From IMG/VR virus record IMGVR_UViG_3300021141_000706: a DNA stretch of 64,000 nt. The stretch is one strand, 5' to 3'. Within the stretch, counting starts at the first letter, position 1, and each line of letters starts with the position of its first letter. A program made the position numbers and the translations under genes. The notes under the pieces are model-generated. The model saw only the letters and a list, made by a program, of their open reading frames with translations, was not told the DNA's origin and made no database searches. The DNA comes from a virus. Shown here piece after piece: positions 10,203 to 62,408 of the stretch.

Positions 10203-11618
10203 TTAAAATTTTATGTACCAAGCTTTAACTGGTATACCTAGTTGTAAAGCTACTGTAGTTCTTTTATGACCACCAACTAAATGATATGGTTTACCTTCTG
10301 TATTTTTCAAGTTGATTATAAATGGTGCTGGTTTAGATATTGATTTTTCTTTAACTAATTCATCATAAGTAAATAGGTATCTTTCCATATCTTTTGAATT
10401 TGGTGCTAAATCAGTTTTTAATCTACTTCTTAAATCCTCTATACCTTCTACTCCTGATTTGAAAGATATTTTACTTTTAAAACCTCCTTTACCAGAGTTA
10501 GGACCAAATACTTGAGTTAAATCACCCATATTACCAGTTTTTTTAACTTCATCTAAAGACCAGTCTTGTAGTTTACCTGATTTGATTAGGTTAAATACCT
10601 CTTTCTTAATATCTGCTGGTGTATTTTCTTTAAAACTTTCCATATCAGCACCTAAACCAATTTGGTCTGGATTTTTACCTACAACTAAACCTCTGATTTC
10701 TTCTTTATCAGTAGTTTCTTTCTTTAAGTATTTAGATACAATATAATGATATACACTTGGTAGTTTAGAATAAACTTTATCAAAGTTATCTTTAATAAAG
10801 AATAATTCTATATTATTAAGTAATTCATGCATTTCTTGATTAATCAATTCATCAGTTGGACCTTGCCAAGTTATTGAATACTTTTCATTAAAATTCTCAT
10901 AAAACTTTAAATATTTCATTTTATAATTGAATGACTCAGCTACCGAACCTTTTGAATTTTCAATAACTTCTTTACTTGTAGTTGTAAAGTAATAACCTTG
11001 TTTCATAAAGTCATTTCTATTAGCAACTTCAGCACCATTTTTACCTGGAAAAGCTGTCATAACAGAAAGAACTGATTTATCTCCTATTTTACCAAGTTTA
11101 GCACCAATGAAACTCAAGAAAGTAGTTTTTTCACCTTCACCTTCTTTTACTTTAATATTAAATTCATTACCTCTTGAATCTTTATAAGTATAAACATTCA
11201 TTGATTTGAATTCATCAGCATTTGGTTCTAATTTATGAACATTCTCAACACCAACATTTGTTTTAGAGTCTAAACCTAACCATTTGAACTTTTCAGCTTC
11301 TTCTGGATTAGTTACTTTAGATTCACTTGGTCCAAAACCTTTTGTCATTTCAGTTGGTTTATTATTTGAAACTAAACCAATAATTGCTTTTTTCAAATCA
11401 ACTCCTTTTTCAAATTTAGAACCAGGAATTGTCTCATCAACGTGAGCATCTGTGATGTGTGTTAAATCACCAAGTAGAAGAATAAAATCACCAGCTTCAA
11501 ATACTGTTGAGTTGTCAGCTTTTACTTTACCTTTTAAAAATTGATTATTATCAATCATACTTTGTATTTCTTGATAAAGTGTTTCATTTAAGTCTTCAAA
11601 CATTTTTAAGTGTTTCAT
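10203..11618 (-). CDS. putative internal virion protein with C-terminal ParB/Srx-like domain
   Basis: Begins MKHLKMFEDLNE; second MKYLKFYENFNE motif internally; LVGGHKRTTVALQLG near C-terminus. Confidence 0.65.
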   Translation of the reverse strand: MKHLKMFEDLNETLYQEIQSMIDNNQFLKGKVKADNSTVFEAGDFILLLGDLTHITDAHVDETIPGSKFEKGVDLKKAIIGLVSNNKPTEMTKGFGPSESKVTNPEEAEKFKWLGLDSKTNVGVENVHKLEPNADEFKSMNVYTYKDSRGNEFNIKVKEGEGEKTTFLSFIGAKLGKIGDKSVLSVMTAFPGKNGAEVANRNDFMKQGYYFTTTSKEVIENSKGSVAESFNYKMKYLKFYENFNEKYSITWQGPTDELINQEMHELLNNIELFFIKDNFDKVYSKLPSVYHYIVSKYLKKETTDKEEIRGLVVGKNPDQIGLGADMESFKENTPADIKKEVFNLIKSGKLQDWSLDEVKKTGNMGDLTQVFGPNSGKGGFKSKISFKSGVEGIEDLRSRLKTDLAPNSKDMERYLFTYDELVKEKSISKPAPFIINLKNTEGKPYHLVGGHKRTTVALQLGIPVKAWYIKF

Positions 11619-11619
11619 A

Positions 11620-11874
11620 TTAAAATTCTATTTTTTCAACGTCATTTAAATCGACATTGTATTGTTTTCCATCAATCTCAACGGTGATTAAGCCATCTTG
11701 ATCAATATCAATCGGAGTTATACCTTCTTCAGGTTTATTTTCAGGGAAATCATGAACAATAGTTGAATAAATAAGACCTCTATTTTTTATACACTTGATA
11801 ATATCATCTTGTGTTATAAGAGTTCCTTCCTCATTATTCTTCTTAAAATCCTCAAAAAGTTTCATCCATTTCAT
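11620..11874 (-). CDS. small hypothetical protein with N-terminal leader
   Basis: Start moved to MKWMKLFEDF, just after TTAATATATA. Confidence 0.7.
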   Translation of the reverse strand: MKWMKLFEDFKKNNEEGTLITQDDIIKCIKNRGLIYSTIVHDFPENKPEEGITPIDIDQDGLITVEIDGKQYNVDLNDVEKIEF

Positions 11875-11879
11875 GAATT

Positions 11880-11901
11880 TATATATTAAAAATAATATAT
11901 A
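11880..11901. promoter_or_regulatory. back-to-back putative late promoters
   Basis: TTAATATATA on - (11880-11889) and TAATATATA on + (11893-11901). Confidence 0.7.
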
Positions 11902-11920
11902 CATAAAATTACTTTATAAA

Positions 11921-13225: not shown

Positions 13226-13229
13226 AAAA

Positions 13230-13239
13230 TTAATATATA
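13230..13239 (+). promoter_or_regulatory. putative late promoter
   Basis: TTAATATATA just before ATG 13244. Confidence 0.7.
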
Positions 13240-13243: not shown

Positions 13244-14008
13244 ATGAAATACTTAAAAAGATTTAACGAAGAACTTAGACCAAGAACATATCTATCTGCT
13301 GCTAAAAAATTAACAGCTATTGGACATACTGATAGAGCTAACACCCTAAAAGATTGGGCTAATGAAACTGAAAAAAGAGAAGAAATTGCTAAATGGAAAG
13401 AACAACTTCAAAATTATTCACCATTTGGTATTTATAAAGTGAATGTTGTTAATCCAGAAAGTGGTGAAAAATTCACTGCTGATTTTGCGTTAGATTTAAG
13501 TTTTGATGAATTAGCATTTGAAGATAACTTTGAATATGAAAAACAAAAAGATCCAAACAATATTAGTGAAGTAAGTATTTTCTTTTTTGTTGGTTTAATT
13601 CCTACATCAGAAGAAGTTCTTAAAAAATGTGAAGAAGTAATGCCTGAACCTGAATTTGGTAACGGTATGTACTGGGGCATGTCTTGTGGTATAGATTTCA
13701 AAGTCGAAAATGGACAAGTTATACTTGATAAATTTGCCTTAGATGATTATGACGATAACTTATCTGGTAATGTTTCTTTTGCTGATAGAGCTTCTGCTGG
13801 TAAATTCAAAAACTTATTAAAAAGTATTTTTAGTAACCCTGACTTAAATTATCCAAGTGGATATACTGATGCTGATAGTATCTATCAGAAATTAGAACAA
13901 GTTATTTTAATTCAACAAGGATTCTCATCTGATTATGGATTTGAATTAAAAAATATTGCCGACTTTATTAACACTCAATCACCAAATACAATGTATAAAA
14001 CTATTTAA
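13244..14008 (+). CDS. putative internal virion protein, paralog 1 of 3
   Basis: MKYLKRFNEE leader; TYxSAAxKLxxxGH motif. Confidence 0.75.
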   Translation: MKYLKRFNEELRPRTYLSAAKKLTAIGHTDRANTLKDWANETEKREEIAKWKEQLQNYSPFGIYKVNVVNPESGEKFTADFALDLSFDELAFEDNFEYEKQKDPNNISEVSIFFFVGLIPTSEEVLKKCEEVMPEPEFGNGMYWGMSCGIDFKVENGQVILDKFALDDYDDNLSGNVSFADRASAGKFKNLLKSIFSNPDLNYPSGYTDADSIYQKLEQVILIQQGFSSDYGFELKNIADFINTQSPNTMYKTI

Positions 14009-14009
14009 T

Positions 14010-14837
14010 ATGAAACATCTAAAAAGTATTAATGAATTAAAATCTAGTACATATGCTTCTGCTGCTAATAAGTTGAAGAATATGGGTCATATTAGAAGAT
14101 CTGGTGAATTAGAACAATGGACTAAAGAAGTCCAAAATAAAGAAAAAGATGCTAGAGAATTAGAAAATTTTAATTCATTCAAACACGGTGTTCCTTTCAA
14201 AATTAACTTAGTTAAAGTTAAATATAATAGTGCTACTAAAAGTAGAGATCATGACATAATGGTTACAGGTAACTTTTATCTAAAGCCTTCTTTTGATTTT
14301 TCATGGGCTCAAGATCAATACAATGATAATGCTGATGAGAATGGAAATACTGAATACTCTTACTATATGCCTTTTGAAGTAGGTATAATGGCAGCAGATG
14401 AAGAAACAAAAGAGAAATTCAGATCAATTGAAGAAAATCTTTCTGATGAAGTATATGAAGGAGTTTATTGGTTACAAAGACTTTATTATAAAATAATTAA
14501 TGAAGGTTCTAAAGAAATAACTCCAACTGGTGAATTTTCTTGGGAATGTAGAGAAAGTGATGAAATAATGTTTGAAAATAGAGCCGAGGCTTTAAGATTC
14601 AAAAAGATGTTTGTTGATGCGGTTCACGGTAGAAATACTTTTGGTAATTCAAAATGGGTACCAAGTATGCATGAAGAATTAAAGAAATTCTTTTTAGGTG
14701 ATTGGTTACAGAGATATAATCGTGATACAAAATCATATGATAAAGTAGACAGACAAGAAGTATTTAACGAAGAAGCTTTCAAAAGATTCTTAGATTCAAC
14801 TAATAAAATGTCAATAAATCAATTATATAGAAACTAA
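14010..14837 (+). CDS. putative internal virion protein, paralog 2 of 3
   Basis: Start moved to MKHLKSINE; TYASAANKLKNMGH. Confidence 0.75.
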   Translation: MKHLKSINELKSSTYASAANKLKNMGHIRRSGELEQWTKEVQNKEKDARELENFNSFKHGVPFKINLVKVKYNSATKSRDHDIMVTGNFYLKPSFDFSWAQDQYNDNADENGNTEYSYYMPFEVGIMAADEETKEKFRSIEENLSDEVYEGVYWLQRLYYKIINEGSKEITPTGEFSWECRESDEIMFENRAEALRFKKMFVDAVHGRNTFGNSKWVPSMHEELKKFFLGDWLQRYNRDTKSYDKVDRQEVFNEEAFKRFLDSTNKMSINQLYRN

Positions 14838-15604
14838 TGAAGTATCTAAAGAAATATAATGAAGAGTTAAAGGCTGATACTTATAAATCAGCGGCTGATA
14901 AATTGGCTAAGATGGGTCATGTTAAAAGACCAGAAGAGTTAATGAAGTTTCATGTTGTGGCTAAAGAAAGAGAAAAAGAAGAAGCTAAAAGAAAAGCCAT
15001 TGAAGAAGCATCTGAATTAGGTACTTATAAAATGACCTTAAAAGGTCGTGGTGATATTAAATTCACTGGTGATTTCTATGTTTATTTTTACTGGAATAAT
15101 GATAATTTTGATGAAAGCTATGGAGATTGGAAATCATTTGATAGCAGTTCTCTTTGGTTACAATTTGACTTTTCTGTTTTACCAGCATCTGAAGAATCTA
15201 AAGAATTTACTCAAAATGTTCTTAATAAAGAAATAGGTCTTAATTATGACGGTAAATGTTATTTAGGTTCATTTGGTCTTAATCTAACACAAGGTGGTGC
15301 CTCTTATGATGAAAATGATAAACCAACATATGTTCTAAAACCTAATGGTGGATTCTATTTTGAGGAGTATGATAGTATAGCATGGTATATGGCTGATAGA
15401 GGATCTGCTCAGAAATTTAAGAAGATGCTTTATGATGTATTTGAGGGTAATATTGTTTGGAGAGAAACTCCACAATTACCTGGTGGTGTGAAAGAACAAA
15501 TCTTAGACTTCCTTTGTTCAGATATGGATCATACCTTAGAAGAGTTTGAAGAATTTATAGAATCTCTAAAACGAATAAGTGTAAATAAACTTTATAAAGA
15601 CTAG
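14837..15604 (+). CDS. putative internal virion protein, paralog 3 of 3
   Basis: MKYLKKYNEE; TYKSAADKLAKMGH. Confidence 0.75.
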   Translation: MKYLKKYNEELKADTYKSAADKLAKMGHVKRPEELMKFHVVAKEREKEEAKRKAIEEASELGTYKMTLKGRGDIKFTGDFYVYFYWNNDNFDESYGDWKSFDSSSLWLQFDFSVLPASEESKEFTQNVLNKEIGLNYDGKCYLGSFGLNLTQGGASYDENDKPTYVLKPNGGFYFEEYDSIAWYMADRGSAQKFKKMLYDVFEGNIVWRETPQLPGGVKEQILDFLCSDMDHTLEEFEEFIESLKRISVNKLYKD

Positions 15605-15972
15605 TGAAATATCTAAAAAGATTTAATGAATCCTCTGACTTTACTCCAGAAGAAATAATGAAAGAATTAACTCTTGGATTATTAGATGCTGGTTTACAAG
15701 TTAATGTTTATTCTGGTGAATATAAAAAATCAAATCACCCAAGATTTGAAGGTGAGTTACATGTTGAGATAACTGATAATAATAAAGTATTTTGTAAAAA
15801 CTATCCTGAAGATGATATGGATTGGTTATATGGTAAACCTGTTATTATGGATTTCTTTGATGAGCTAACAGACTTTGGTTTAATAAGAGATAAAGATTAC
15901 AAAGTATATGGTGGTGGATTAAATGTTAATTTAGTCTTCCAAAAAGAAGGACTTAATAAAGTTAAACTATAA
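15604..15972 (+). CDS. putative internal virion protein
   Basis: GTG start, MKYLKRFNES. Confidence 0.7.
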   Translation: MKYLKRFNESSDFTPEEIMKELTLGLLDAGLQVNVYSGEYKKSNHPRFEGELHVEITDNNKVFCKNYPEDDMDWLYGKPVIMDFFDELTDFGLIRDKDYKVYGGGLNVNLVFQKEGLNKVKL

Positions 15973-16022: not shown

Positions 16023-17192
16023 ATGAAATTAAAAAGATATAATCAATTTTTAGAATCTAAATCTGATATGTGGGATATCATTCCACAATCAGTGAAAGAG
16101 TTACACGAACTATTTCAATCAGCAGGTAAGAAACTTTACTTAGTTGGTGGTTCAGTGCGTGACTTCTTAACTGGTGATAAACCAAAAGATTTTGACTTAG
16201 CAACCGATGCTCTTCCAGATGAAGTTTTGGAAATTGTCGGAGATAAATTTAGAACTAACCTTCAAGGTAAAGCCTTCGGAGTTGTTGTAGTTTACACTAA
16301 AGAAGTTCCAGAAGGAATGGAAATTGCTACATTCAGAGAAGATGTTTCAAAAGGTCGTAACCCAGAAGTTAAATTGGGTGTTACTATTGAAGATGATGTT
16401 AAGCGTAGAGACTTAACTTACAACTCTCTTTTCTATGATTTAGATACAAGACAAATCGTTGACTTAGTTGGTGGTAAAGAAGATTTACAATCTGGTATTA
16501 CGAGAATGGTTGGTGATCCTATTGAAAGATTTGATGAAGATTCATTAAGAATTTTAAGAGCATTTAGATTTGCTTCAAGATATGAACATCCTTTACATAA
16601 AGATACTGAAAGTGCTATTGAGAAAAGAAAACAACTTCAAAACATTGATCCAGAGACTGGTGAAATGAAAAGAATTTCTCAAGAAAGAGTTTGGGAAGAA
16701 ATGAAGAAAGCTTGGAAACAAGCCAAAGATTACAGATACTACTTATCATTCTTTACTAAGTTTGATATGTGGGATGAAGTATTTCCTGTTGCTAACATCA
16801 ATACTAATTTAGTTGATTCAAAAGACTTTATAGTTGTTGTTGCTAACTTATTTAAGAACGAATCCACTTTAGGTTTGACTGATAGACTAGCTCAAGAATA
16901 TAAGATTGAATTAGAAACAGCTACTAAAGTAACTTTCTTACTTTCGTTATTAAATTTCAAAGTAGAAGATGTATTTGATATTTACAAGAAAAGACAACAA
17001 TGTGCTATCACTGATGCTACTATTTTAGAGTGGTTAAAAGTCGAAGGTATTGATACTGATACTTTAGTTAAGTTTGTTGAATACAAACCAAGTGTATCTG
17101 CTCAAGAACTTATGTCTCAAGGATTCAAGGGTAAAGATCTTGGTGATGAAATCAAAAGATTAGAGATAGAAAAATTTAAACAAATGCTATGA
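16023..17192 (+). CDS. cca: CCA-adding tRNA nucleotidyltransferase (class II)
   Basis: LVGGSVRD..KDFDLAT, EIATFR, RRDLTYN, EDSLRILRAFRF, SQERVWEE. Confidence 0.9.
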   Translation: MKLKRYNQFLESKSDMWDIIPQSVKELHELFQSAGKKLYLVGGSVRDFLTGDKPKDFDLATDALPDEVLEIVGDKFRTNLQGKAFGVVVVYTKEVPEGMEIATFREDVSKGRNPEVKLGVTIEDDVKRRDLTYNSLFYDLDTRQIVDLVGGKEDLQSGITRMVGDPIERFDEDSLRILRAFRFASRYEHPLHKDTESAIEKRKQLQNIDPETGEMKRISQERVWEEMKKAWKQAKDYRYYLSFFTKFDMWDEVFPVANINTNLVDSKDFIVVVANLFKNESTLGLTDRLAQEYKIELETATKVTFLLSLLNFKVEDVFDIYKKRQQCAITDATILEWLKVEGIDTDTLVKFVEYKPSVSAQELMSQGFKGKDLGDEIKRLEIEKFKQML

Positions 17193-18040: not shown

Positions 18041-20854
18041 TTAGAATGTATATTTAACTGAGGCTGATATTGTTTGACCAAAGTTTATGTTTTGCCAATT
18101 GTTATCACCTTTATCATACTTTTGATTACCGTTCAAGTCTTGGAAGTAAACTAAGTCTTGAGCTAAGATATCTTTTATATTAAGTTTTGTTTCAAAGTGT
18201 TTACCAAACTTTTTAGATACTTGAAAGTCTATAACATTTCTTCCATTTTCCCAAACTGAAGGCTCTTGAATATTACCTACAATGTAAATTCTTTGACCAA
18301 TTACATTATAAGATAAAGTTACTGTCATATCTTTCTTAGGTGTATTATAGAATATACCAGAGTTTATAATGTAAGGTGACTGACCTTGTAGTGGTCTGTT
18401 CTCACCAGAACCAATGAAGTGACTCATATCAACTGTTGACTTTATTAAAGACAGGTTTGAATAAACTGTTATGTTATCCCATACTTTACTTTCTTTCTTA
18501 CAGAATGTTCCTAAGTTATATCTAATTTCAAATTCAGCACCGATATTTGTTACTTTATTTACATTAGCGTAGTAAAGTTCAGGTGCTCCTGATGTACCAG
18601 TTCTATTGATTAACTCAATTGGATTCTCAAATGTTTTATAGAAACCAGATACAGATATGATTTGACCTTTACCAGGATACATTTCCCATCTAACATCAAA
18701 GTTATCTATGGTAGCTCTTTTCAAATTAGGGTTACCACTTACTATATTATCAATAACAAAGTTATAGAAACTAAATGGTGCTAACTCTCTAAACTCTGGA
18801 CGAGAAACTGTTCTATAATAAGAACCTCTTACTTTCATCTTTTTGTTTAACGAATAAACTATATTAACTGATGGTAAGAAATCAACAACTGTTGTATCAA
18901 TATGTTTATTTTCGTTAGAACCAAACTCAATATAATTAAATTGTTGATTATATGACTCTATTCTTAAACCACCAATGATTCTAAACTTCTCACCAATCTT
19001 TGTATCTGTCATTGCGAAAGCCGCATTTAGAAAAGAGTTGGCTTGATAACTATCATCAACATTTGTAGCTTCATCTAATTTGAAACCTCCTTGACCATTT
19101 GATAAAAGACCCATATTTTCTTGAGAGAATATCTCATCTGGTCCTAATAGTAGTAAGTTACTATTGAATGTGCTACCTGTTGGTTTGTATTGAGAGAACC
19201 CTAAGTTTCTTGATGAGAAATCACGAGTTCTGTATTGATGCCATCCACCTATCTTAAATTCATTTTCTATTTTATTAAAAGTAAAAGGAATAGACCAATC
19301 ATAATTAGCACTGTAGATTTTCTCAGATGATTTAGACCAAAACATATTACCAGCCGCAGTTGGAATAGTTCCATTTTGTTGAATAATAGCTGTCCATTGT
19401 TGAGTTGTATCATCTTCAAGTAATGAATACTTACGATAAACTAATCTTCTAAGATTTGGAATATCTCTTTTAACATCACTGAATCCTAAATTCCAGTTCA
19501 ATTTAGTTTTCTTAATCTCATGTTTACCATATAGTTGTTGAGTTAATAAATTGTTTTGTGTATACCAGAAGTTTGTTGATCTTTCCCATTGACGAGGATC
19601 ATTATCCATCTCTCTAACACCGTTTCTAATATTTACTTTATCTTCTGAATTGATAGAATAAAGATTTTTGAATCTAATTATGTTCTTATCATTAATCTGA
19701 TAAGCAAAGTTTAACATAGCACTATTCAAAATAGTTTGAGTAAATACAGAATCTTTCAATTCCATTTTTTGAACAACACCTGCTGATTGTTCTTCAAAGT
19801 CTCTTCTTACTGAGTTATTCATAGTAGAAGCACTTTGATAACTATAAGCGAAAGTTATACCAAGTGAGTTATCTTTTTTGAATTTGATATATCTACCAAT
19901 CGAGTATTGTAAACTACCAATTGGTAAAGCCAATCTTGATTTAGTTGACCAAGAAGTGTTAATCATTTTTGATAAATCCGCCTTATCTGACTTATTTAGA
20001 GTAGAAAAGTCTAAAGTACTTGGCATTGATTCAGGTAAACTTCTATAGTTAGAACCAAACCCTAAGAAGTCAGTAGAACTTCCTTGATAAGTTTTGAAGT
20101 TTTGAAATGTAGATATCGCATTGAATCCTAAACCATACTGAATACTTTGAAACTTAGAATCTTTTGGTTCAGATGTGCTGATATTAATAACACCACCAGC
20201 AAACTCACCTGGCATATCTGGTGAACCAGACTTCATAACAATTAGATTATCTAACATATTAGAAGGAAAGATATCAAATGAGAAAGCTTTTCTATCTGAT
20301 TCTGAACTTGGTAGTGGAGAACCATTTATTAGAGCGAAGTTGTATCTATCATTTAGACCACGAATAACTACAAACTTATTATCTTGTACAGAAGCACCAC
20401 TCACTCTTTTGAATACATCTGATACTTTCGTATCTGGTGTTTTCTTAAAAGTTTCAGCATTAACACCATCTTGAACGACAGCACTGTTGCTTTGTTGTTT
20501 AACTAAATCAACTGTTGATTCTTTATTAGCTTTAGCTTTAACTGTAACAGTTCCTATGTCTAAAGTTTTTTCCTTTAACTTTATATTTAAAGTGTCTTTT
20601 GATGTCGCTTTAATGAATTGTGAATGATAACCCATGTATCTAAATTCTAAAGAGTAAGTAGGTTTATCTAAACCTTTCAATTCAAATTTACCATTTATGT
20701 CAGTTGTGGTTCCTTTTCCGGACTCACCTTGAATTAGTATCAACACGCCAATGACTGGCTCGTTTGAAATCGAGTCAGTCACTGTGCCTGATATTTGTGA
20801 AAATGCTGTAAGTGTCGATATTAAGAATGTAAATATCAGTAAGAGTTTTTTCAT
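18041..20854 (-). CDS. TonB-dependent outer-membrane receptor
   Basis: Signal peptide, CarboxypepD_reg-like N-domain, plug (IRGLNDRYN...GEFAGG), beta-barrel ending in terminal Phe (VKYTF). Confidence 0.9.
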   Translation of the reverse strand: MKKLLLIFTFLISTLTAFSQISGTVTDSISNEPVIGVLILIQGESGKGTTTDINGKFELKGLDKPTYSLEFRYMGYHSQFIKATSKDTLNIKLKEKTLDIGTVTVKAKANKESTVDLVKQQSNSAVVQDGVNAETFKKTPDTKVSDVFKRVSGASVQDNKFVVIRGLNDRYNFALINGSPLPSSESDRKAFSFDIFPSNMLDNLIVMKSGSPDMPGEFAGGVINISTSEPKDSKFQSIQYGLGFNAISTFQNFKTYQGSSTDFLGFGSNYRSLPESMPSTLDFSTLNKSDKADLSKMINTSWSTKSRLALPIGSLQYSIGRYIKFKKDNSLGITFAYSYQSASTMNNSVRRDFEEQSAGVVQKMELKDSVFTQTILNSAMLNFAYQINDKNIIRFKNLYSINSEDKVNIRNGVREMDNDPRQWERSTNFWYTQNNLLTQQLYGKHEIKKTKLNWNLGFSDVKRDIPNLRRLVYRKYSLLEDDTTQQWTAIIQQNGTIPTAAGNMFWSKSSEKIYSANYDWSIPFTFNKIENEFKIGGWHQYRTRDFSSRNLGFSQYKPTGSTFNSNLLLLGPDEIFSQENMGLLSNGQGGFKLDEATNVDDSYQANSFLNAAFAMTDTKIGEKFRIIGGLRIESYNQQFNYIEFGSNENKHIDTTVVDFLPSVNIVYSLNKKMKVRGSYYRTVSRPEFRELAPFSFYNFVIDNIVSGNPNLKRATIDNFDVRWEMYPGKGQIISVSGFYKTFENPIELINRTGTSGAPELYYANVNKVTNIGAEFEIRYNLGTFCKKESKVWDNITVYSNLSLIKSTVDMSHFIGSGENRPLQGQSPYIINSGIFYNTPKKDMTVTLSYNVIGQRIYIVGNIQEPSVWENGRNVIDFQVSKKFGKHFETKLNIKDILAQDLVYFQDLNGNQKYDKGDNNWQNINFGQTISASVKYTF

Positions 20855-20860: not shown

Positions 20861-22444
20861 TTATTTTCTAACTATAATCTTTTTTGTTGTATTATCAACT
20901 TGTAAGAAATAGATACCATTCGTAAGTGTACTAACATCTAAACTAAGATTTCCTGATACTGTTTGAGTATTAATTACTCTACCCATACCATCGATTAAAG
21001 TTACTTGTACTAATCTATCAGTTGTGATGTTTACATTGTTTGTAGCAGGGTTAGGGTAGATAGATACGTTTGTAGTTTTAGTAATCTCATTTACACTAAC
21101 AAATCCACCAACAAATTTAGAGTTTGTGAAATCAGCTCCTGTTGCTACTAATGAAGTAGAATCTAATCTACAGTCAGGTGTAGTTCCTAATGTTGGAAAA
21201 GCATTGACCCAATTGATTTGAGATACTGAAGTTGTTGTATCATTTACTGAAGCAACTGTTGTAAAGAAAGTTGGTGTGGCAGTTACATAACTAGCACCTA
21301 AAGGTAGTTCAGTTAAAACATTGTTTGAGAAAACTAATGTTCCAGATGTTACGTTATTCTCACAAGAAGGACCTTCGATTGATAATCCTTTTTCCCAACC
21401 AACTACTAAAGAGTTGAATACTGAGATAGAAGAGTTTCTTCTAATTCTAAAAGCTTTTTCAAATTTTTCACCAACTGGTAAAGATAAAGAACCATTTCCT
21501 TTAGCTCCAATAATTGTTAAGTTTGAGAATATTGCTGCTGTTTGTGGTGTGTTAGCTGAACCAGCCGCATCGTTATCTGATTCTAAACCGTTTGAGTCAC
21601 CAGCCGCATCATACATAGTATTATCACGAATGATTAAACCAAATTGAATTCTACCTCTGTAACCAAAATCAGTATCGAAGTCATCATCAATTCCTCTGTA
21701 AGCGATTAGATGTTTACAATCAACTGTGCCACCAAACCATTCGTAAGAGTCATCACCTGAGAAAGAAACTTGTATAAAGTCTACTTGAGTTCCTCTACCA
21801 ACTGAACCAAAAGTAATACCGTTGATTTCTTTGTTTGGTTCTAAAGCGATACCAGCAAATTCAATTCTTACATATTTTAATGAACCTGAGTTATCATTGT
21901 CATCTGATCCACCATATTGTGTATTAGCAGTTGGTACAATACCTTCAATGTTAGCAACACCACCTGGTTGATTATTTGTAGCTTGACCTAAGATAACTAA
22001 ACCACCCCAGTCACCTTCAGCTCTATTACCAACTGATTCATTTGAAGTGAAAACGATTGGTAAGTTTTGTGTACCTTCAGCTATTATTTTACAACCTTTA
22101 GTAACGATTAAAGTTGCTTGTGTTGCTTTGTCACCTCTGATAATTGTACCAGGTAAGATAGTTAATGTAGCTCCGTTAGTTACATAGATTTTATTTTGTA
22201 ATAAAACATTACCACCGATTGTTGTGTTTGTTGTAATGTCTGAGTTAAGTGTAGAAGTAGTTGAAGGATAGTTAGTGTTTTCTGGGTCGAAATTTGACCA
22301 TCCATATGTCCAGTTTGTACCTGGTGTTCCATCAGTTACAGGGAATGCTCCTTTGTAAGATGTTGCTGTCCAAAATGTAGACTGTGCGTTTAGACTAAGA
22401 TTAAGACCAAGTCCGATTAAAATAAGAGTAAATAATTTTCTCAT
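20861..22444 (-). CDS. secreted beta-helix-like protein with T9SS type A C-terminal sorting domain
   Basis: Signal peptide; GDWGGL, DDNSG.LKYVRIEFAG, DDDFDTDFGY; CTD IYPNPA...GIYFLQV...KKIIVRK. Confidence 0.85.
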   Translation of the reverse strand: MRKLFTLILIGLGLNLSLNAQSTFWTATSYKGAFPVTDGTPGTNWTYGWSNFDPENTNYPSTTSTLNSDITTNTTIGGNVLLQNKIYVTNGATLTILPGTIIRGDKATQATLIVTKGCKIIAEGTQNLPIVFTSNESVGNRAEGDWGGLVILGQATNNQPGGVANIEGIVPTANTQYGGSDDNDNSGSLKYVRIEFAGIALEPNKEINGITFGSVGRGTQVDFIQVSFSGDDSYEWFGGTVDCKHLIAYRGIDDDFDTDFGYRGRIQFGLIIRDNTMYDAAGDSNGLESDNDAAGSANTPQTAAIFSNLTIIGAKGNGSLSLPVGEKFEKAFRIRRNSSISVFNSLVVGWEKGLSIEGPSCENNVTSGTLVFSNNVLTELPLGASYVTATPTFFTTVASVNDTTTSVSQINWVNAFPTLGTTPDCRLDSTSLVATGADFTNSKFVGGFVSVNEITKTTNVSIYPNPATNNVNITTDRLVQVTLIDGMGRVINTQTVSGNLSLDVSTLTNGIYFLQVDNTTKKIIVRK

Positions 22445-23525: not shown

Positions 23526-23533
23526 CAAATATT

Positions 23534-23607: not shown

Positions 23608-23620
23608 CAAATCAAATAAA

Positions 23621-23961: not shown

Positions 23962-23966
23962 AATTT

Positions 23967-48942: not shown

Positions 48943-48952
48943 ATAATAAATT

Positions 48953-49556: not shown

Positions 49557-49566
49557 ATACTATAAT
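49539..49566 (+). promoter_or_regulatory. putative middle promoter
   Basis: AAAC-N18-TATAAT. Confidence 0.55.
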
Positions 49567-49585
49567 AAAAAACAAAAAAGAATAA

Positions 49586-50764: not shown

Positions 50765-50766
50765 AG

Positions 50767-51246
50767 ATGATAAAGATAATAGTAGCAACATCAAAGAATA
50801 AAGTTATTGGTAACAATAATGAATTGATATGGAAACTATCATCTGATCTTAAACGATTCAAAGAATTAACTACTGGTCATCCAGTTGTGATGGGTAGAAA
50901 AACTTATGAATCAATTGGTAAACCTCTTCCTAATAGAAGAAACATAATCATAACGAGAAACTTAGAATACGAAGTTAATGGTTGTGAGGTAGTTTCTTCT
51001 TTAGAAGAGGCTTTACTTTTAACAAACAATGATTGTTTTATTATCGGTGGTGGTGAAATCTACAAACAATCATTAGAAGTAGCTGATAAAATTTATCTAA
51101 CACTTGTTCATAAAGACTTTGAAGGTGATACAACATTCCCTGAATTAGGTAAAGAGTGGGCTACAATTGATACTAAAGACTTTGACGCTGATGAAAAAAA
51201 CGAATATAACTATTCATTTATAGAATATGACAGATATGAATTCTAA
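50767..51246 (+). CDS. folA: dihydrofolate reductase
   Basis: DLKRFK, MGRKTYESIGKPLPNR, IGGGEIY, GDTTFP. Confidence 0.95.
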   Translation: MIKIIVATSKNKVIGNNNELIWKLSSDLKRFKELTTGHPVVMGRKTYESIGKPLPNRRNIIITRNLEYEVNGCEVVSSLEEALLLTNNDCFIIGGGEIYKQSLEVADKIYLTLVHKDFEGDTTFPELGKEWATIDTKDFDADEKNEYNYSFIEYDRYEF

Positions 51247-51802
51247 GAAAGGTAAATTAATTATGGTAATGGGTCCACCTGCTAGTGGTAAAAGTACATT
51301 AGCCGCTGAAGTTCATACAGAACTAAAGAAGAAAGGAATCAATTCTGCTTTCGTTAGTGAAGCAGCAACCGATTATATTGCTGAGTATGGAGTTCCTAAC
51401 TCACCGTCAGATCAGATGGTGATTTTCTATAAACAGTTAAACAGAGAGAAGATGTTTTTAGAGTCAAAAGATTATATTATCTGCGACTCTAGTTCTATTC
51501 TTAATTACTTTTACTTTAGATCTTTATTTTCAACAGAACTTACTAATAAAGATATTGCTTCTATCAATCATATTCAAAAGGAAATTCTAAAACATATCAA
51601 TACAATCGATATGGTGTTCTATGTACCACCGATCGATACAGATACTAATGATGGTATCAGATTTCACCAGGGAGATGAAATAAAGAGACTTGGTGTCTTA
51701 ATTAAGTCTTACTTAGAGATGGAGAATATTACTCACCAAGATTTAACAACGGTTGATATGAAAGACCGTGTTGATTACATAATCAAATCTATTTTAAAAT
51801 AA
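51227..51802 (+). CDS. AAA_28/NadR-like P-loop kinase
   Basis: GPPASGKST, VSEAA, IICDSS, DGIR. Confidence 0.75.
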   Translation: MTDMNSKKGKLIMVMGPPASGKSTLAAEVHTELKKKGINSAFVSEAATDYIAEYGVPNSPSDQMVIFYKQLNREKMFLESKDYIICDSSSILNYFYFRSLFSTELTNKDIASINHIQKEILKHINTIDMVFYVPPIDTDTNDGIRFHQGDEIKRLGVLIKSYLEMENITHQDLTTVDMKDRVDYIIKSILK

Positions 51803-51864
51803 GAAACCCATTCATTTCTGAATGGGTCTGTCAAGGGATGCTATCCCAAGAGGGGTTCTTATTT
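51797..51864. other. structured intergenic element between converging genes
   Basis: Hairpins ACCCATTCA/TGAATGGGT and GGGAT/ATCCC enclosed by AAATAAGAA/TTCTTATTT. Confidence 0.55.
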
Positions 51865-52902
51865 ATATGATTTTATAATAGAAGAAATCTCAGCTTTAAT
51901 TTTACCTAACTCTTCATATCCAAATTCTTTAGGGAATTTATTACCTACTTTCTTAACACCAACATAGTCAGATCTAAACATTACCTGACCGATATGTTCA
52001 TCACAACAATGAATTTCAAAGTCATCTCCTGTTTGTTTTACTTTACAATCTTTTTGAGATGTAACTAAATCTTTAACTTTCTTTCTGAAAGAATCTTTCT
52101 TATCAGCTTTTACTTCTGTGTGTTTGTCTTTAGTTCTTACTGATTTCTCAGCAACACCTTCACCTAACCAACTTGGTTTACCCATACCATCTTGCCAACC
52201 GCCTTCTGATCCAGAGTCATCATATCTTTCATCATCTCTTGGGTACATTCCATCTGGATCTTCTTTTTGAGATCTTCTTATTCTCTTTTCTCTTTTCTCA
52301 GCATCTTCTTTAGCTTTATGTGGAAAATTAGAGATTTCTGTTTTTTCTGATGGAGATAATTCCTCATCAGATTCATTAAGAGATTCAACAATTAAATCAT
52401 CTAATTCATCTAATTTATATTTACCTATTGATTTAGAAATTTTATAATCAGATATCTTTTTCAATAACCATTCTAAATCTTCTTTCTTCTTTTCATCAGT
52501 TGCTTTGGCAAAACTTTTTTCAACACTTTCAATTAATTTATTTTTAACCTCACTGAACTTAAATCCATTAGGATATTCTTTTTTGAACTTTTCAACTTTC
52601 TTTTCTAATTCTCTTCTTTCATTTGGTGTTAAATCCGAATTCTCTTTAGCTAGTTTCTTTTTAACTTCTTCAATATCTAATGCTAACTTAACAACATTAT
52701 CTAAAACAGCTTTAACAACCCTCCATTTATTCTCAATTGAAATAGTTTTACCAATTACTTTTAATAAAAGTGGAACTAATGGCTTCAATAAGAAACCAAC
52801 TATTTTGAATGGTAGTTTAAGTATATCACCAATTAGTCCTTCGTTAATCATTTCTTGATTATAAGACTCATTAAATTTTTCCCAGTTTTGGATATTTTTC
52901 AT
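51859..52902 (-). CDS. putative internal virion protein
   Basis: MKNIQNWEKFNES..MINE; TTATATATA at 52925-52933. Confidence 0.7.
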   Translation of the reverse strand: MKNIQNWEKFNESYNQEMINEGLIGDILKLPFKIVGFLLKPLVPLLLKVIGKTISIENKWRVVKAVLDNVVKLALDIEEVKKKLAKENSDLTPNERRELEKKVEKFKKEYPNGFKFSEVKNKLIESVEKSFAKATDEKKKEDLEWLLKKISDYKISKSIGKYKLDELDDLIVESLNESDEELSPSEKTEISNFPHKAKEDAEKREKRIRRSQKEDPDGMYPRDDERYDDSGSEGGWQDGMGKPSWLGEGVAEKSVRTKDKHTEVKADKKDSFRKKVKDLVTSQKDCKVKQTGDDFEIHCCDEHIGQVMFRSDYVGVKKVGNKFPKEFGYEELGKIKAEISSIIKSYK

Positions 52903-52988: not shown

Positions 52989-53642
52989 TTATTTACTTAA
53001 TAATCTGATTAAGTCTTCAGTGATTTTAGTAATCATCTTCTTACCTTCAACTTCTACTAATGGAATATTTTTAACCATTGAATATTTATCATTACCATCT
53101 ACACTAATTTTAGAAATAGCTTCAATAAACTTAGCATCTTTACCATATTTCTTAGTGTAATATCCTTTTAACTCATTAACGAATTTAGACAAATCAACAC
53201 CTTCTTTAACGTTATATTTAACCATTTGAAGTTCGTTGTCTTGTTTTTCAACCATAATATACCAAATAGACTTCTTAGAAACTTTAACATTCTCAAGAAA
53301 GTTATAAGCTTTAGATGCTTTAGTGTTTTTAGGGAATTTAGCAACTTTACCAAAAGTTTCTACTTTACCTTCATGAGTTTTATCACCAGTTTCATCAATA
53401 TCATTTTCAAATTCATCTTCGTCAGAAGGTAAATCTACTGTTTGGTCTTGAGGTATCAAGTTTTTTCTTGAAGCTGGTTTTTCAATTTTCTTAGAATCTC
53501 TAGACAAATTAGGATTTGCCGGCAAATCTGAATCAGTCATAGGTTTAACATCCAATGAAGGATTAACCTCTTCTATCTTTGATTTACCTTTGATATCAGA
53601 GAATTTCTTGAACCCAACAATCTTTTTATTTTCTTCTGCCAT
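52989..53642 (-). CDS. hypothetical late protein
   Basis: KKIVGFKKFSD leader-like start; TTAATATATA at 53667-53676. Confidence 0.7.
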   Translation of the reverse strand: MAEENKKIVGFKKFSDIKGKSKIEEVNPSLDVKPMTDSDLPANPNLSRDSKKIEKPASRKNLIPQDQTVDLPSDEDEFENDIDETGDKTHEGKVETFGKVAKFPKNTKASKAYNFLENVKVSKKSIWYIMVEKQDNELQMVKYNVKEGVDLSKFVNELKGYYTKKYGKDAKFIEAISKISVDGNDKYSMVKNIPLVEVEGKKMITKITEDLIRLLSK

Positions 53643-58587: not shown

Positions 58588-58833
58588 TTATCTAATTGGT
58601 TTGTAATTAGGAATAGCACCTTTGTAATTGTTGTTACTTTTTCTGATTTCTTCGTGTTCAGCTTCTGCTGCCGCTTGATATTCAGGATCATTCTTTTCGT
58701 CTTGTTTACAAGTCATACAGATGACATCTTCGTTAAACATAGACATTGTAGTAACACCATTAGTCGGTTCACCACATCTATCACAGATAGATTTATTCAT
58801 TCCAAAAGATTCGTATGTTTTTAAGTGTTTCAT
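58588..58833 (-). CDS. small Zn-finger protein with N-terminal leader
   Basis: MKHLKTYESF then CDRC...MSMFNEDVICMTC. Confidence 0.75.
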   Translation of the reverse strand: MKHLKTYESFGMNKSICDRCGEPTNGVTTMSMFNEDVICMTCKQDEKNDPEYQAAAEAEHEEIRKSNNNYKGAIPNYKPIR

Positions 58834-59352: not shown

Positions 59353-59655
59353 TTAGTGATTTCTATTTAAATCGAATGTTATTTCATACCCGTTTTTTTC
59401 AGACCATTCTCTAACAACATCTATCTTATCACCTAATTTAAATGGAAGATTAAGTTCTTCTAATTTTATTTCAGAATAAATCTTCATATCAGTGATGACA
59501 TTTTTAACTTGTGTATAATAAATATGTAATTCAAACTTCTTAGACTTTCCTAAGAACCAACTTTTATGATAGCCTTCTATAGCTAAATGATTCATAAATC
59601 TTCTTATGTTTGAACCACCCATAAATTCATTAAAATTTTTTATTTTATTACTCAT
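59353..59655 (-). CDS. putative internal virion protein
   Basis: MSNKIKNFNEF leader. Confidence 0.7.
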   Translation of the reverse strand: MSNKIKNFNEFMGGSNIRRFMNHLAIEGYHKSWFLGKSKKFELHIYYTQVKNVITDMKIYSEIKLEELNLPFKLGDKIDVVREWSEKNGYEITFDLNRNH

Positions 59656-59717: not shown

Positions 59718-60350
59718 ATGAATAAATTAAAGCAACTTGAAATAAAAAAATTAATGAAGGAATTAGACTTCGTTGAGTCCGATTTTACATATAAAAACGA
59801 GATAGTACATGAAGCTGATAGTAACTTTATAAAAAGTGTTAATGATTTATTAGAACAACATCCTTTATTGAAAGACGTATTTGATAAAAAGATTAATAAT
59901 AAAATAGATAATATCTTTCAAAGAAGAACTGAAGAGTTAAAAGATAAAATAGAAACTATAAATGAATCATATCAAGAGGATTCAATTGAGGAAGAAGTTA
60001 TAGTTGAAAAGATTATTGATAAAAAAGTTAGAAAGTTATACAGAGAAATAGCCAAAATAACACATCCAGATAGAATTGATAATAGAAAATTAAATGACCT
60101 TTATATTAAGGCAACTATTTATTATAACAATAATGATATTGCTGGTACTTATTCAATATGTAACGAATTAGATATAGAGTATGAGCCAGATGATTCTGAT
60201 AATCAATTAATATCTGGTAAAATAAATGGTCTTAAAAGTAGAATATCATTTATGGAATCAACATTAACTTGGGTTTGGTATCACTCAACAGATGATAAGG
60301 AAAAAGAACAAATGATTTTAGGATATATTAAGAATCAATTAGATAATTGA
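59718..60350 (+). CDS. J-domain-like co-chaperone
   Basis: VRKLYREIAKITHPDR (HPD motif). Confidence 0.7.
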   Translation: MNKLKQLEIKKLMKELDFVESDFTYKNEIVHEADSNFIKSVNDLLEQHPLLKDVFDKKINNKIDNIFQRRTEELKDKIETINESYQEDSIEEEVIVEKIIDKKVRKLYREIAKITHPDRIDNRKLNDLYIKATIYYNNNDIAGTYSICNELDIEYEPDDSDNQLISGKINGLKSRISFMESTLTWVWYHSTDDKEKEQMILGYIKNQLDN

Positions 60351-60971
60351 TACTGTGACTTTTCTGTCGTTTAATAAAGATTGAAGTTCATCTTTTCTAA
60401 AGAATCTTTTGTAGACATCATTTTCTTTATCAAGATTCTGAAGCTCCCAAGTATTACCATCAGATGTAACATAGATATAGTTCCCATCACCATCAGTTAC
60501 TTCAATTGTTTTAGATGATAGTTTATCATAGAACTTTTTAACATCACCATTTATCTTAAAAAACTTAACATCTTCCCATTCTTTATTAGTTTCATTCCAA
60601 ACTTGAAAAGTAATGTAAAGAGGATTTTCTAACTCATTTGAGCTAATATCATAAATAAACATCCATTTACAAGGTTTGTTAACAAATGTTTGATACTCTT
60701 CTGTGTTTTGAACTGGTGATTTCTTTAGACCTAAAGAAGATAATGAGTTAATGAATTCAATATTATCTGATAAGAAGTCTAAACTTAATCGTCCATCATA
60801 AAAATCTTTAGGTAGTTTCAAAGTATCAAAGATATCTTTCTCTTCTGCTGAAATTGCTGATAGAAGTACATCATGCCATATATTCATTGATTCTAATATA
60901 TCAACTGACATAACCATAAGGTCAATCACCAATGACTCTTTGAACTTATTATATGATTTTATTACTCTCAT
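60339..60971 (-). CDS. putative internal virion protein
   Basis: MRVIKSYNKFKES leader. Confidence 0.7.
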   Translation of the reverse strand: MRVIKSYNKFKESLVIDLMVMSVDILESMNIWHDVLLSAISAEEKDIFDTLKLPKDFYDGRLSLDFLSDNIEFINSLSSLGLKKSPVQNTEEYQTFVNKPCKWMFIYDISSNELENPLYITFQVWNETNKEWEDVKFFKINGDVKKFYDKLSSKTIEVTDGDGNYIYVTSDGNTWELQNLDKENDVYKRFFRKDELQSLLNDRKVTVSII

Positions 60972-60991
60972 TTCAAAAAAGAATTAATTAA

Positions 60992-61009
60992 TTTAATATA
61001 TATATTAAA
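60992..61009. promoter_or_regulatory. palindromic bidirectional late-type promoter
   Basis: Perfect palindrome TTTAATATATATATTAAA between divergent genes. Confidence 0.7.
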
Positions 61010-61028
61010 ATACTACAACACAAATCTA

Positions 61029-62408
61029 ATGAAATGGCTAAGAGATTATAAATTATTCAAGGAAGCAAGACAAGAGAAGGTTTCTTATAAGAACCTAGTT
61101 GGAGAAATCTGTACTGCGATGGTTTTGTTAAACAACGAATTCCTTGATAATATATTAGATAGAGGTTTGAAAGCTAGATATTCTGAAAATTCAGAAATAT
61201 TTATCACAGACTTAAAGAATCTTCTTCTAGCTAAGAACAGATTAAACTTAGGTAGATTTGAAGGTGATACTTGTGTTACTGATGATGAGATATCTAAAGC
61301 TAGCCTATTATTTGATTCAATTGAATTTGACATTGAAAAAGATTGGGATAAATTAGTTGCTGCTAGAACAACTGCTAGAAATATTATTGATAAATTATTA
61401 TTAGATTCTAAATTAAAACCTGAGATGATTAAAAACATTTTCTGGATTGGTCCTAATAAAGATTCTGATCATCAAGAGGATATAGTTGTTGAAGATAAAG
61501 ATGGTAATCAATATAGTTTTTACTTAAACAAAAACTTAGCAACTCAAAAGTCTGCTTCATTTAATTTATTTGCGGATGAGTTAATTGGTGCTGATATTGA
61601 TAGATTATACAAAGAAGATTATTTATCTAAATGGGATAAACTAACTCAAGAGTGGATTAGATTAATTTATGAAAATGCTAATAAAAATATTCAACAGTTG
61701 ATTGAGAAGTTTATTGATGCTAAAAGAATTGATACTATTGGTTATTTTGAATACTTTGATATAAGACACAAAGATCCTAAGTTCAAACATTTAGGTGAAT
61801 TCATACAAGAATATGATAAAAACATTCTTAAATTCTCTGACTTAATGAATGAGATTTGGAAAAGTAAAGAAAATAGCTTTATGGATTCTGAAAGAGTTAC
61901 CAAAGAGTGGATGGAAATTAAAATAGTTATTCTTAACTCTAAAATTCTTGAAAATCTTTTAACATCAAGTCTTAAATCAAATCACACAGATGATATCCAA
62001 AAAGCTGAAGATGGTTGGAAACTTGCTGGTGGTACAGTTAAGATGAAATTATTTAAGACTTTAGTTGAGAAGATGGGTTGTTTAGAAAGACCTATTTACT
62101 TCTTAGGTAAAAATGGTGATATCTTTAATTTAGTTCCTTCAAGAGAATTCTTTAGAGAACATTATGATGACTTAAAAATCAAATTTGATTATCATGTTAA
62201 TTTTGAAGTTAGTGAAGAAGAAGAGAATAATGATTTTACAATAAAAATAAAATTAGAGTTAGACGATACTACTTTAATTGATATGTTTATTATTGTTAAG
62301 TTCTCTGGTGGTGAGATGTCTGGTAAGTTATCTGCTAAATATAAATTTGATATTGCCGACAACTTCAACTATTTAATTTCAAAAAAACAGTCTAATCAGT
62401 CAGAATAA
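61029..62408 (+). CDS. putative internal virion protein
   Basis: MKWLRDYKLFKEA leader, 459 aa. Confidence 0.7.
   Translation: MKWLRDYKLFKEARQEKVSYKNLVGEICTAMVLLNNEFLDNILDRGLKARYSENSEIFITDLKNLLLAKNRLNLGRFEGDTCVTDDEISKASLLFDSIEFDIEKDWDKLVAARTTARNIIDKLLLDSKLKPEMIKNIFWIGPNKDSDHQEDIVVEDKDGNQYSFYLNKNLATQKSASFNLFADELIGADIDRLYKEDYLSKWDKLTQEWIRLIYENANKNIQQLIEKFIDAKRIDTIGYFEYFDIRHKDPKFKHLGEFIQEYDKNILKFSDLMNEIWKSKENSFMDSERVTKEWMEIKIVILNSKILENLLTSSLKSNHTDDIQKAEDGWKLAGGTVKMKLFKTLVEKMGCLERPIYFLGKNGDIFNLVPSREFFREHYDDLKIKFDYHVNFEVSEEEENNDFTIKIKLELDDTTLIDMFIIVKFSGGEMSGKLSAKYKFDIADNFNYLISKKQSNQSE

Follow-up and report, generated by a model that had tools for sequence, protein, structure and literature searches.

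A T4 capsid-targeting-like N-terminal tag on unrelated proteins of a huge-phage genome fragment

The viral record IMGVR_UViG_3300021141_000706 is a 64-kb stretch of DNA (here called the window, at its whole length) with a G+C content of ~30% and tightly packed genes, and it raises the question why so many of its dissimilar proteins begin with nearly the same short leader. The original prediction had listed 19 such proteins, likened their leader to the capsid-targeting sequence (CTS) of phage T4 internal proteins, and proposed that a greatly expanded set of proteins, enzymes included, is packaged in the head and injected with the DNA. All 19 N-termini were found at their genes, 14 with a strong, two with a moderate and three with a weak leader, and roughly every sixth protein of the window is tagged. 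The analysis pointed to a modular, protein-level tag that probably works like the capsid-targeting and cleavage signal of T4.

The N-terminal tag and its carriers

The nearest DNA relatives of the window in the phage collection were two uncultured huge phages, LR745206.1 (634,780 bp) and LR756502.1 (642,428 bp), with ~80% identity across one tenth of a 20-kb query. Comparisons drew on whole genomes for LR745206.1 (W01) and LR756500.1 (W05, 462 kb) and, for LR756501.1 (W06, 735 kb), on its first 320 kb; phage T4 and Tenacibaculum phage PTm1, a cultured relative, were also included. W01 orthologues of window genes were 45–80% identical at the protein level, and gene order was mostly kept. A leader profile hidden Markov model (HMM) was trained on 47 W01 N-termini only and used with a cut-off of at least 10 bits; internal controls were 25-residue windows, each with an artificial Met added, and N-termini were counted with a crude gene caller that recognized ATG starts only.

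At this cut-off the HMM matched 13 of 87 window N-termini and 104 of 917 W01 N-termini, as against two of 6493 internal control windows. A simple regular expression found 11 of 87 N-termini and none of 530 internal 30-residue windows in the window, and 55 of 917 N-termini and 29 of 5147 internal windows in W01. When whole W01 proteins were scanned, each of the top “internal” HMM matches started at a Met just downstream of a start that had been called too early, indicating that the tag is a feature of true N-termini. The carriers in the window, with HMM scores in bits, were as follows.

10203–11618 (−): 471-aa tagged protein, leader MKHLKMFEDLNE, 15.0 bits, strong
10878–10919 (−): second complete leader MKYLKFYENFNE, residues 234–247 of the 471-aa protein
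11620–11874 (−): 84-aa tagged protein, leader MKWMKLFEDF, 12.8 bits, strong
13244–14008 (+): 254-aa tagged protein, first of three paralogues, 23.2 bits, strong
14010–14837 (+): 275-aa tagged protein, second paralogue, leader MKHLKSINE, 19.6 bits, strong
14837–15604 (+): 255-aa tagged protein, third paralogue, 23.7 bits, strong; its start overlaps the preceding stop
15604–15972 (+): 122-aa tagged protein with a GTG start, leader MKYLKRFNES; strong on sequence, outside HMM scoring
16023–17192 (+): 389-aa tagged CCA-adding enzyme (tRNA nucleotidyltransferase), leader MKLKRYNQFLES, strong
29103–29420 (+): extra candidate outside the 19, 7.1 bits
29678–30439 (−): 253-aa tagged protein, leader MIIKKYKLFLEE, 10.9 bits, strong
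30444–31481 (−): 345-aa tagged protein, leader MKHLKSYQLFEA, 15.1 bits, strong; a TAATATATA box (see below) stands before the ATG
31486–31959 (−): 157-aa protein, moderate leader MIKRWSTFNEN, 5.4 bits
32317–33609 (−): 430-aa two-module protein, weak leader MKVINNFSGFVNEE, P-loop kinase and then a second module
32965–33003 (−): internal leader-like joint KVDKYVSFLRES, residues 203–215 of the 430-aa protein, between kinase and second module
38766–39206 (−): weak candidate, ILDFKTFES behind a short extra N-terminal stretch; start uncertain, GTG or TTG
39175–40299 (−): 374-aa tagged protein, leader MKYVKTFES, 10.1 bits, strong
51859–52902 (−): 347-aa tagged protein, leader MKNIQNWEKFNES, 13.0 bits, strong
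52989–53642 (−): weak candidate, KKIVGFKKFSD, with Ser-Asp where Glu is usual and no Glu in the tag
58588–58833 (−): 81-aa tagged Cys-rich protein (phrog_27033), leader MKHLKTYESF, 14.8 bits, strong
59353–59655 (−): 100-aa protein, moderate leader MSNKIKNFNEF, 6.9 bits
60339–60971 (−): 210-aa tagged protein, leader MRVIKSYNKFKES, 15.5 bits, strong
61029–62408 (+): 459-aa tagged protein, leader MKWLRDYKLFKEA, 13.5 bits, strong

The tag was 9–12 residues long, with a main form M-K-[Y/H]-[L/I]-[K/R]-x-[F/Y]-N-E followed by S or E, and longer forms ending in F-x-E. Among 118 W01 leaders, Met stood at position 1 in 100%, Lys at position 2 in 64%, Tyr or His at position 3 in 72%, Leu or Ile at position 4 in 79%, Lys or Arg at position 5 in 81% and Phe or Tyr at position 7 in 75%, with N-E or E-E at positions 8–9; window leaders mostly showed the same pattern at positions 4 and 7. 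A hydrophobic-x-Glu site lay within residues 5–20 in 106 of the 118, as against 38% of other proteins. Its Glu peaked at position 9 and then at 11–12, and the next residue was usually Ser, Glu, Asn or Ala, mostly Ser. Tagged genes were spread across the whole 635-kb W01 genome, in runs of up to five adjacent genes, and made up 11–15% of proteins, i.e. more than 100 per genome. The wording of the tag varied by lineage: W05 favoured MKYIKEYEEF-[IL]-x-E and W06 MIKKF-x-x-F-x-NE.

The leaders lacked the hydrophobic core of Sec, Tat and lipoprotein signal peptides (at least 10 residues after a basic N-region). They were charged and amphipathic and were followed by an acidic stretch, unlike the signal peptides of two window proteins, 18041–20854 (−) (937 aa) and 20861–22444 (−) (527 aa). 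Their signal peptides are Bacteroidota-style, with ...AFSQ and ...LNAQ, respectively, as last residues, and neither protein had a Pfam or PHROG match in the searches made; from their N-termini they may be secreted or surface proteins, which would fit a Bacteroidota host.

Orthologues in the window and W01 retained a leader yet could swap one variant for another. The 122-aa protein, whose GTG start was seen on the DNA to overlap the TAG stop of the preceding gene, has a W01 orthologue (50% identity) with a long leader variant MIIKKYIRFLES ahead of the same body. In the W01 orthologue of the 345-aa protein (45% identity), the leader differs in length and closes with INE-A ahead of the same conserved body, so that both leaders finish Glu-Ala. 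In the 374-aa protein a second site, PINE-E, lies ~20 residues in, and both sites are kept in the W01 orthologue (49% identity). Leaders were likewise kept in the orthologue of the 210-aa protein (65% identity), and the 459-aa protein had an orthologue 71% identical. The true start of the 84-aa protein is an internal Met of a longer open reading frame (ORF), the start also used by its W01 orthologue (63% identity). As for the weaker cases, the orthologue of 38766–39206 (−) has a clean leader MKQLKNFKLFES from a GTG start; 52989–53642 (−) has a box ~24 nt upstream and an N-terminus conserved in its orthologue; and the orthologue of the Cys-rich protein carries a degraded leader, MDNLETFESF.

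Unrelated bodies and a modular tag

In an all-against-all BLASTP of the 19 window proteins minus their first 16 residues, similarity was found only among the proteins starting at 13244, 14010 and 14837. As the bodies are unrelated apart from these three, ~17 independent families bear the tag in the window. Descent from one expanded paralogous family, with the shared N-termini as leftovers, is hardly credible as an explanation and was rejected on this BLASTP result: the three are true tandem paralogues, but the other 16 bodies are mutually dissimilar, known folds among tagged bodies are unrelated, and the same CCA-enzyme body occurs both with and without the tag.

The 255-residue protein (14837–15604) offered a view of the tag across a family. 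A leader of the form M-[KR]-[YH]-L-x-x-[YF]-x-E headed all but two of 96 homologues, down to 28% identity; both leaderless exceptions were truncated, and longer relatives inserted an extra module after the leader. Over 53 aligned homologues the majority-residue fraction was 0.85 for residues 1–11 and 0.54 for the body, and residues 1–11 ranked third most conserved of 245 alignment windows. In the AlphaFold model of this protein the mean predicted local distance difference test score (pLDDT) was 91, with residues 2–8 below 50; no convincing PDB fold match was obtained for the family (Foldseek E at least 0.04; VIA Z at most 6, a helical hairpin only). In the AlphaFold2 model of the CCA-adding enzyme, residues 2–11 were helical and the first ten averaged a pLDDT of 54, joined by a short linker to a body averaging 95. 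Being strongly conserved without a structural role, the tag behaves like a short recognition peptide.

The CCA-adding enzyme (PF01743 from residue 38, E 5.5e-30; phrog_2244, E 2e-59) was compared with 150 diverse homologues drawn from 1.8 billion representative proteins, the shared body beginning at about query residue 20; an earlier search had returned only copies at least 94% identical and was uninformative on tagged versus untagged forms. Of 146 homologues with an intact body start, 27 were bare, 86 had an N-terminal extension of 9–45 residues, and 33 were embedded in longer proteins, several of them 800–1900 residues long. Many of the extensions were recognizable leaders in lineage-specific dialects, one of them L-L-R-E-Y-I-x-E-x-x-E-S. 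In 61% of cases, as against 23% of control windows (p 1e-17), the 25 residues ahead of the body contained a hydrophobic-x-Glu-[small or acidic] site, and similar hydrophobic-x-Glu sites followed the body where another module came after it.

Near-identical copies of the tagged CCA-enzyme gene numbered in the thousands, indicating that the lineage is very abundant in lake metagenomes. One copy, 99% identical, comes from a database contig that, at 816,658 bp, is larger than the 735-kb record in the phage collection.

Two tagged window proteins looked like fusions. The 471-aa protein, without a match in Pfam or PHROG, resembles a fusion of two modules; its internal leader at 10878–10919 scored highest of all internal HMM matches in the window, at 6.8 bits with an alignment beginning at HMM position 1, and is a candidate site for internal cleavage or for an internal start. 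The 430-aa protein combines an AAA_33/Zeta_toxin match at residues 28–189 and a PNK-like PHROG match with a second module (residues 203–418) homologous to a stand-alone tagged W01 protein (529241–529942), and the joint between them, K-V-D-K-Y-V-S-F-L-R-E-S, aligns with the N-terminal leader of that W01 protein. The tag is modular, one and the same enzyme being found untagged, tagged or inside polyproteins.

Promoter box, head genes and the cleavage motif

In W01 the 60 nt ahead of the gene contained the 8-mer TAATATAT/AATATATA in 52 of 118 tagged genes and in 134 of the 799 other genes (odds ratio 3.9, p 2e-10). The box likewise stood ahead of 13 of 28 W01 proteins of at least 700 residues, and ahead of the W01 portal and protease-scaffold genes. 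The T4 late promoter is TATAAATA. Since the box resembles it and the W01 genome has a gp55-like late sigma factor (phrog_234), we read the box as a late promoter, and by this reading a late-type promoter box is common to tagged genes and head genes. In the window a TAATATATA box precedes 13244, 16023, 30444 (−), 32317 (−), 38204 (−) and 58835 (−), among others; that of 13244 lies at 13229–13237, 5 nt ahead of the ATG. Two distances from the ATG were preferred, ~5 nt and ~20–30 nt, and the shorter suggests leaderless mRNAs.

A close box is what might be expected if the shared N-terminus were a nucleotide-level feature, i.e. a translation-initiation enhancer, a leaderless-mRNA signal or a recombination cassette, and the AT-rich tag codons of an AT-rich genome would agree with that; many tagged genes do have the TAATATATA box ~5 nt before the ATG. 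We nevertheless regard this explanation as very improbable. Synonymous use in codons 2–12 of the 118 W01 leaders was indistinguishable from that in gene bodies (leader/body: Lys AAA 0.74/0.74, Glu GAA 0.74/0.72, Asn AAT 0.82/0.81), and two adjacent window leaders encoded the same residues with different codons. Trp substituted for Phe or Tyr at the aromatic positions, and orthologues exchanged variants of different spacing. Leaders occurred with the box at 5 nt, at 20–30 nt or without a box, including in translationally coupled genes, whereas 60 of 94 close-box genes had no leader. An RNA- or DNA-level signal was rejected on the codon-usage test and the lack of coupling to promoter distance; the pattern indicates that the leader is selected at the protein level.

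A second, C-terminal tag, R-x-x-K-[IL]-x-x-[ILF]-[LIFG], was observed in the same genomes and never on N-tagged proteins (window: 0 of 13 N-tagged versus 9 of 74 others; W01: 0 of 118 versus 100 of 799). The TAATATAT box was rare before C-tagged W01 genes (4 of 100). That this tag is a by-product of a downstream start site was unsupported, 22% of such genes having no same-strand downstream gene. The window genes ending in the C-terminal motif were as follows.

4218–4508: C-tagged gene
4960–6759: C-tagged gene
26448–26759: C-tagged gene
28198–28536: C-tagged gene
29458–29688: C-tagged gene
44129–44458: C-tagged gene
47000–47260: C-tagged gene
47247–47540: C-tagged gene
47822–48076: C-tagged gene

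In the relatives, head genes of T4 type were found: a gp23-type capsid protein (PF07068, 88–96 bits) and a portal (phrog_213, E 2e-59). Immediately ahead of the capsid gene lay an ORF of 630–810 residues, the first ~160 of which matched Peptidase S77 (PF03420; 20–24 bits in W01, LR756502 and W06, 44.8 in W05). The W01 protease domain was 32% identical (E 6e-23) to the PTm1 protein annotated by its depositors as “prohead core scaffolding protein and protease”, for which the PF03420 score was 45.7 bits. Single-sequence searches with the capsid protein and the protease-scaffold against PDB sequences gave no match.

The remainder of the S77 ORF is the scaffold. In W01 (ORF 198546–200669) and W06 (ORF 73913–76336) it contained 12–13 tandem 14-residue repeats, K-N-I-A-Y-S-E-Y-I-A-E-N-L-D, and 33 (W01) and 32 (W06) hydrophobic-[ASNTQ]-Glu sites, as against 8.7 and 7.8 in shuffles; T4 gp22 is likewise full of hydrophobic-x-Glu sites. 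In a question asked beforehand, the scaffold proved to be the W01 protein most enriched in hydrophobic-Asn-Glu among 917 (six sites, p 0.0025). The repeat core Y-S-E-Y-I-A-E resembles the T4 CTS core Y-Q-E-F-I-A-E and some long leaders. An origin of the leader as a copy of the repeat was dropped as a general claim, because an HMM of the repeat matched N-termini (3.2%) no more often than internal sequence (3.3%) at 2 bits.

A hydrophobic-N-E-[S/A] motif stood at the protease/scaffold boundary in three lineages (VLNES at 166, TINES at 171 and RVNEA at 168). The propeptide region of the capsid protein held the motif as SINEN, QINEN or QMNEN, and as TINEN in PTm1; in a four-way alignment this region fell in the cleaved N-terminal segment of T4 gp23. 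For the two leader-like proteins of PTm1 (139854–141695 and 141765–142505) the endings are INES and IQES; sites of the INES type are seen repeatedly in the PTm1 scaffold as well. Because head proteins show the motif in three places (the junction of protease and scaffold, the scaffold itself and the propeptide of the capsid protein), its placement suggests that the leader most plausibly ends in the preferred cut site of the head protease. PTm1 has the same kind of protease and ~2 leader-like proteins, so the mass expansion of the tag belongs to the huge-phage clade.

Comparison with T4, cargo and readings of the tag

The sequence MKTYQEFIAE had been given correctly in the original prediction: it starts both ipII and ipIII in NC_000866, and ipI starts MKTFKEF. 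In T4, IPII/IPIII, IPI and Alt bear the CTS, which the prohead protease gp21 cuts off (Mullaney and Black 1996; PMC3012670, PMC9026906, PMC9958956). The first 10 residues of IPIII suffice for incorporation into the head; targeting depends mainly on residues 4 and 7 (Tyr4, Phe7) and processing on residues 8 and 10, and an Asp at position 10 stops processing but not targeting (PMC9026906). The two most conserved hydrophobic positions of the present leaders, 4 and 7, are thus the two targeting positions of T4.

Like the T4 CTS, the tag is ~10 residues long and occupies the very N-terminus of proteins whose bodies are unrelated, with hydrophobic or aromatic residues at 4 and 7 and a hydrophobic-x-Glu end followed by a small residue. 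It differs from T4 in the number of carriers (>100 proteins per genome, 11–15% of genes, as against about three to five), in the commonest leader, which has its Glu already at position 9, a residue earlier than in T4, and which carries Asn at P2 instead of the Ala of the IPII/IPIII tag, in its dialects by lineage (e.g. MKYIKEYEEF-x-x-E in LR756500 and MIKKF-x-x-F-x-NE in LR756501), in a predicted cargo that is acidic and includes enzymes and two-module fusions, and in the relatives' protease being fused to a scaffold of 14-residue tandem repeats. When the leader HMM was run on 264 T4 N-termini, ipI ranked 5th (7.4 bits), ipIII 11th (4.3) and ipII 15th (3.7); by our own hypergeometric estimate, the chance of such ranks is ~1.5e-4. 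The T4-type reading in the original prediction is partly supported: determinant positions, ending motif, head genes of relatives, promoter box and modularity fit it, and the likeness of the leaders to the T4 CTS itself is only moderate.

T4 gp61.1 (NC_000866 18966–19130, gene 61.1) starts MKTFKEFIKED and was the second-best T4 match to the leader HMM, ahead of the three internal proteins.

Phages of the phiKZ kind are a different lineage from the present T4-type megaphage clade. To our knowledge, their propeptides vary in length and share no single conserved leader. Like the present phages they have big capsids, and tens of different internal or ejected proteins are known for phiKZ, 201phi2-1 and SPN3US, whose head proteins, ejection proteins included, are trimmed after Glu by a gp21-related protease (PMC5694885, PMC7411985, PMC10052503). 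Closer to T4, the passage of PMC9026906 that cites Repoila et al. (1994) describes polymorphic internal-protein loci of T-even phages in which a CTS-like leader heads hypervariable cargo, read as an arms race with host defences; as described there, these are one or a few loci per genome and encode basic proteins, whereas here tagged genes are scattered, with runs of up to five. The CTS has also been considered a possibly general means for T4-like phages to load varied proteins (PMC9026906). Our literature search turned up the T4 CTS and processing of the phiKZ type; an account of mass CTS-like tags (at least 100 proteins) in huge phages was not among its results. The T4 CTS, its determinants, the idea of varied cargo and phiKZ-type processing are already published.

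The combined evidence makes it probable that the tag works like the capsid-targeting and cleavage signal of T4; we favour this model because it accounts for all the listed facts together. Tagged proteins would be made late, alongside head proteins, and would attach, through the hydrophobic residues at positions 4 and 7, to the scaffolding core while the prohead assembles. Once the shell is complete, the scaffold-fused S77 protease would cut after the Glu of hydrophobic-x-Glu and so release the cargo within the head; cuts of this kind would also take the scaffold apart, and the cargo would leave with the DNA at the next infection.

Several points weigh against this model. Docking, cutting, packaging and injection of the tagged proteins are inferred, and the head genes considered are those of relatives. 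The resemblance of the leaders to the T4 CTS, judged by HMM score, appears real but moderate (3.7–7.4 bits, under an 8–10-bit threshold). The preference at P2 differs, the scaffold having Ala or Ser and the leaders Asn. Cultured PTm1, despite the same kind of protease, has only ~2 leader-like proteins, and a tag on 11–15% of all proteins far exceeds any documented head cargo. Tagged proteins were more acidic than others, most so in residues 13–40, whereas T4 internal proteins are basic; and a few matched primase or DNA-polymerase-exonuclease families, unexpected as packaged cargo.

Some of these points would suit an address or recognition peptide read by a partner outside the prohead, such as a chaperone, a leader-recognizing modifying enzyme (as for ribosomally synthesized and post-translationally modified peptides), a non-capsid assembly or a system of timed degradation. 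A linear motif conserved without a structural role, its presence on 11–15% of the proteome, the primase-like or exonuclease-like bodies, and a mutually exclusive C-terminal tag in the same genome, by which several address systems become possible, all speak for such a partner. It would leave unexplained the hydrophobic-N-E-S shared with the protease/scaffold junction and the capsid propeptide, the agreement with T4 determinant positions 4 and 7, and the promoter box common to tagged and head genes; moreover, tagged genes are dispersed over 635-kb W01 with no cluster beside one candidate enzyme. We consider this alternative unlikely, though it keeps an appreciable chance. If another reader exists, the tag marks an unknown protein-sorting system in giant phages.

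As to what the tag would carry, the statement that enzymes are among the tagged set held good, with the CCA-adding enzyme and the P-loop kinase (of AAA_33/Zeta/PNK kind) both in the window; these were its only tagged proteins with known domains. Protein-atlas look-ups of two large cargo proteins (61029–62408 among them) returned viral hypothetical proteins only. In W01, 116 tagged proteins matched 12 Pfam families (PolyA_pol, NFACT-R_1, NFACT-R_2, NUDIX, Peptidase_M15_4, 2'-5' RNA ligase, Acb1, RNase_T, the B-family DNA-polymerase exonuclease domain, Toprim_2, MazE-like and DUF6576), as against 84 for a size-matched untagged set. The untagged families included tRNA synthetases, DNA polymerase, helicase and sugar enzymes. 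The tagged Pfam matches are of RNA-repair, nucleotide and anti-defence types (CCA-adding enzyme, 2'-5' RNA ligase/Acb1, NUDIX, MazE-like, M15 peptidase). PHROGs added primase-like, polymerase-exonuclease-like, RNA-ligase and endolysin matches for tagged proteins. The tag was absent from the structural proteins whose N-termini were read, i.e. the portal, capsid protein and protease-scaffold of W01 and a baseplate wedge and a virion structural protein of the window.

A true prohead-core and protease signal need not mean that most tagged proteins are injected effectors. They might be core or filler that is degraded or expelled at maturation (cf. T4 gp67, gp68 and gp22), or be active only in the producing cell until cut. 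Most have no recognizable function, they are acidic like the tails of T4 gp67 and gp68, and several bodies contain extra hydrophobic-N-E sites, e.g. four in W01 251044–252558. We think this improbable in view of the well-folded tagged enzymes with few internal sites (the CCA-adding enzyme with its pLDDT of 95, the kinase, NUDIX and Acb1-like proteins) and of RNA-repair and anti-defence functions being most useful at entry.

Going further than the capsid-targeting model itself, we suggest only tentatively that the lineage loads more than 100 proteins (~1/8 of the proteome) by dialects of the T4 CTS and injects a ready-made takeover proteome, with the C-terminal tag marking a separate, non-late class. 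The load would then include RNA-repair, nucleotide-metabolism and anti-defence enzymes together with protease-jointed polyproteins, and much of the proteome would be address-labelled. If the tag loads heads, the lineage exceeds every other in its predicted set of virion-delivered proteins by a wide margin; the tag would single out, among hundreds of unknown genes, those acting at the onset of infection, giving a route to anti-defence and takeover factors, and it would show how T4 loading scales with capsid size and diverges between lineages. Its natural variants could be tried for loading engineered phage heads, as already done with the T4 CTS.

Elsewhere in the window, 40880–51802 is a long untagged metabolic run with UDP-glucose-4-epimerase-like, phosphoribosyl-pyrophosphate-synthetase-like and dihydrofolate-reductase-like genes (judged from N-terminal sequences only) and one glycosyltransferase supported by a PHROG match. 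Three tRNA genes, Leu(taa), Arg(tct) and Met(cat), lie at 23441–24041 and are similar to Bacteroides phage tRNAs.

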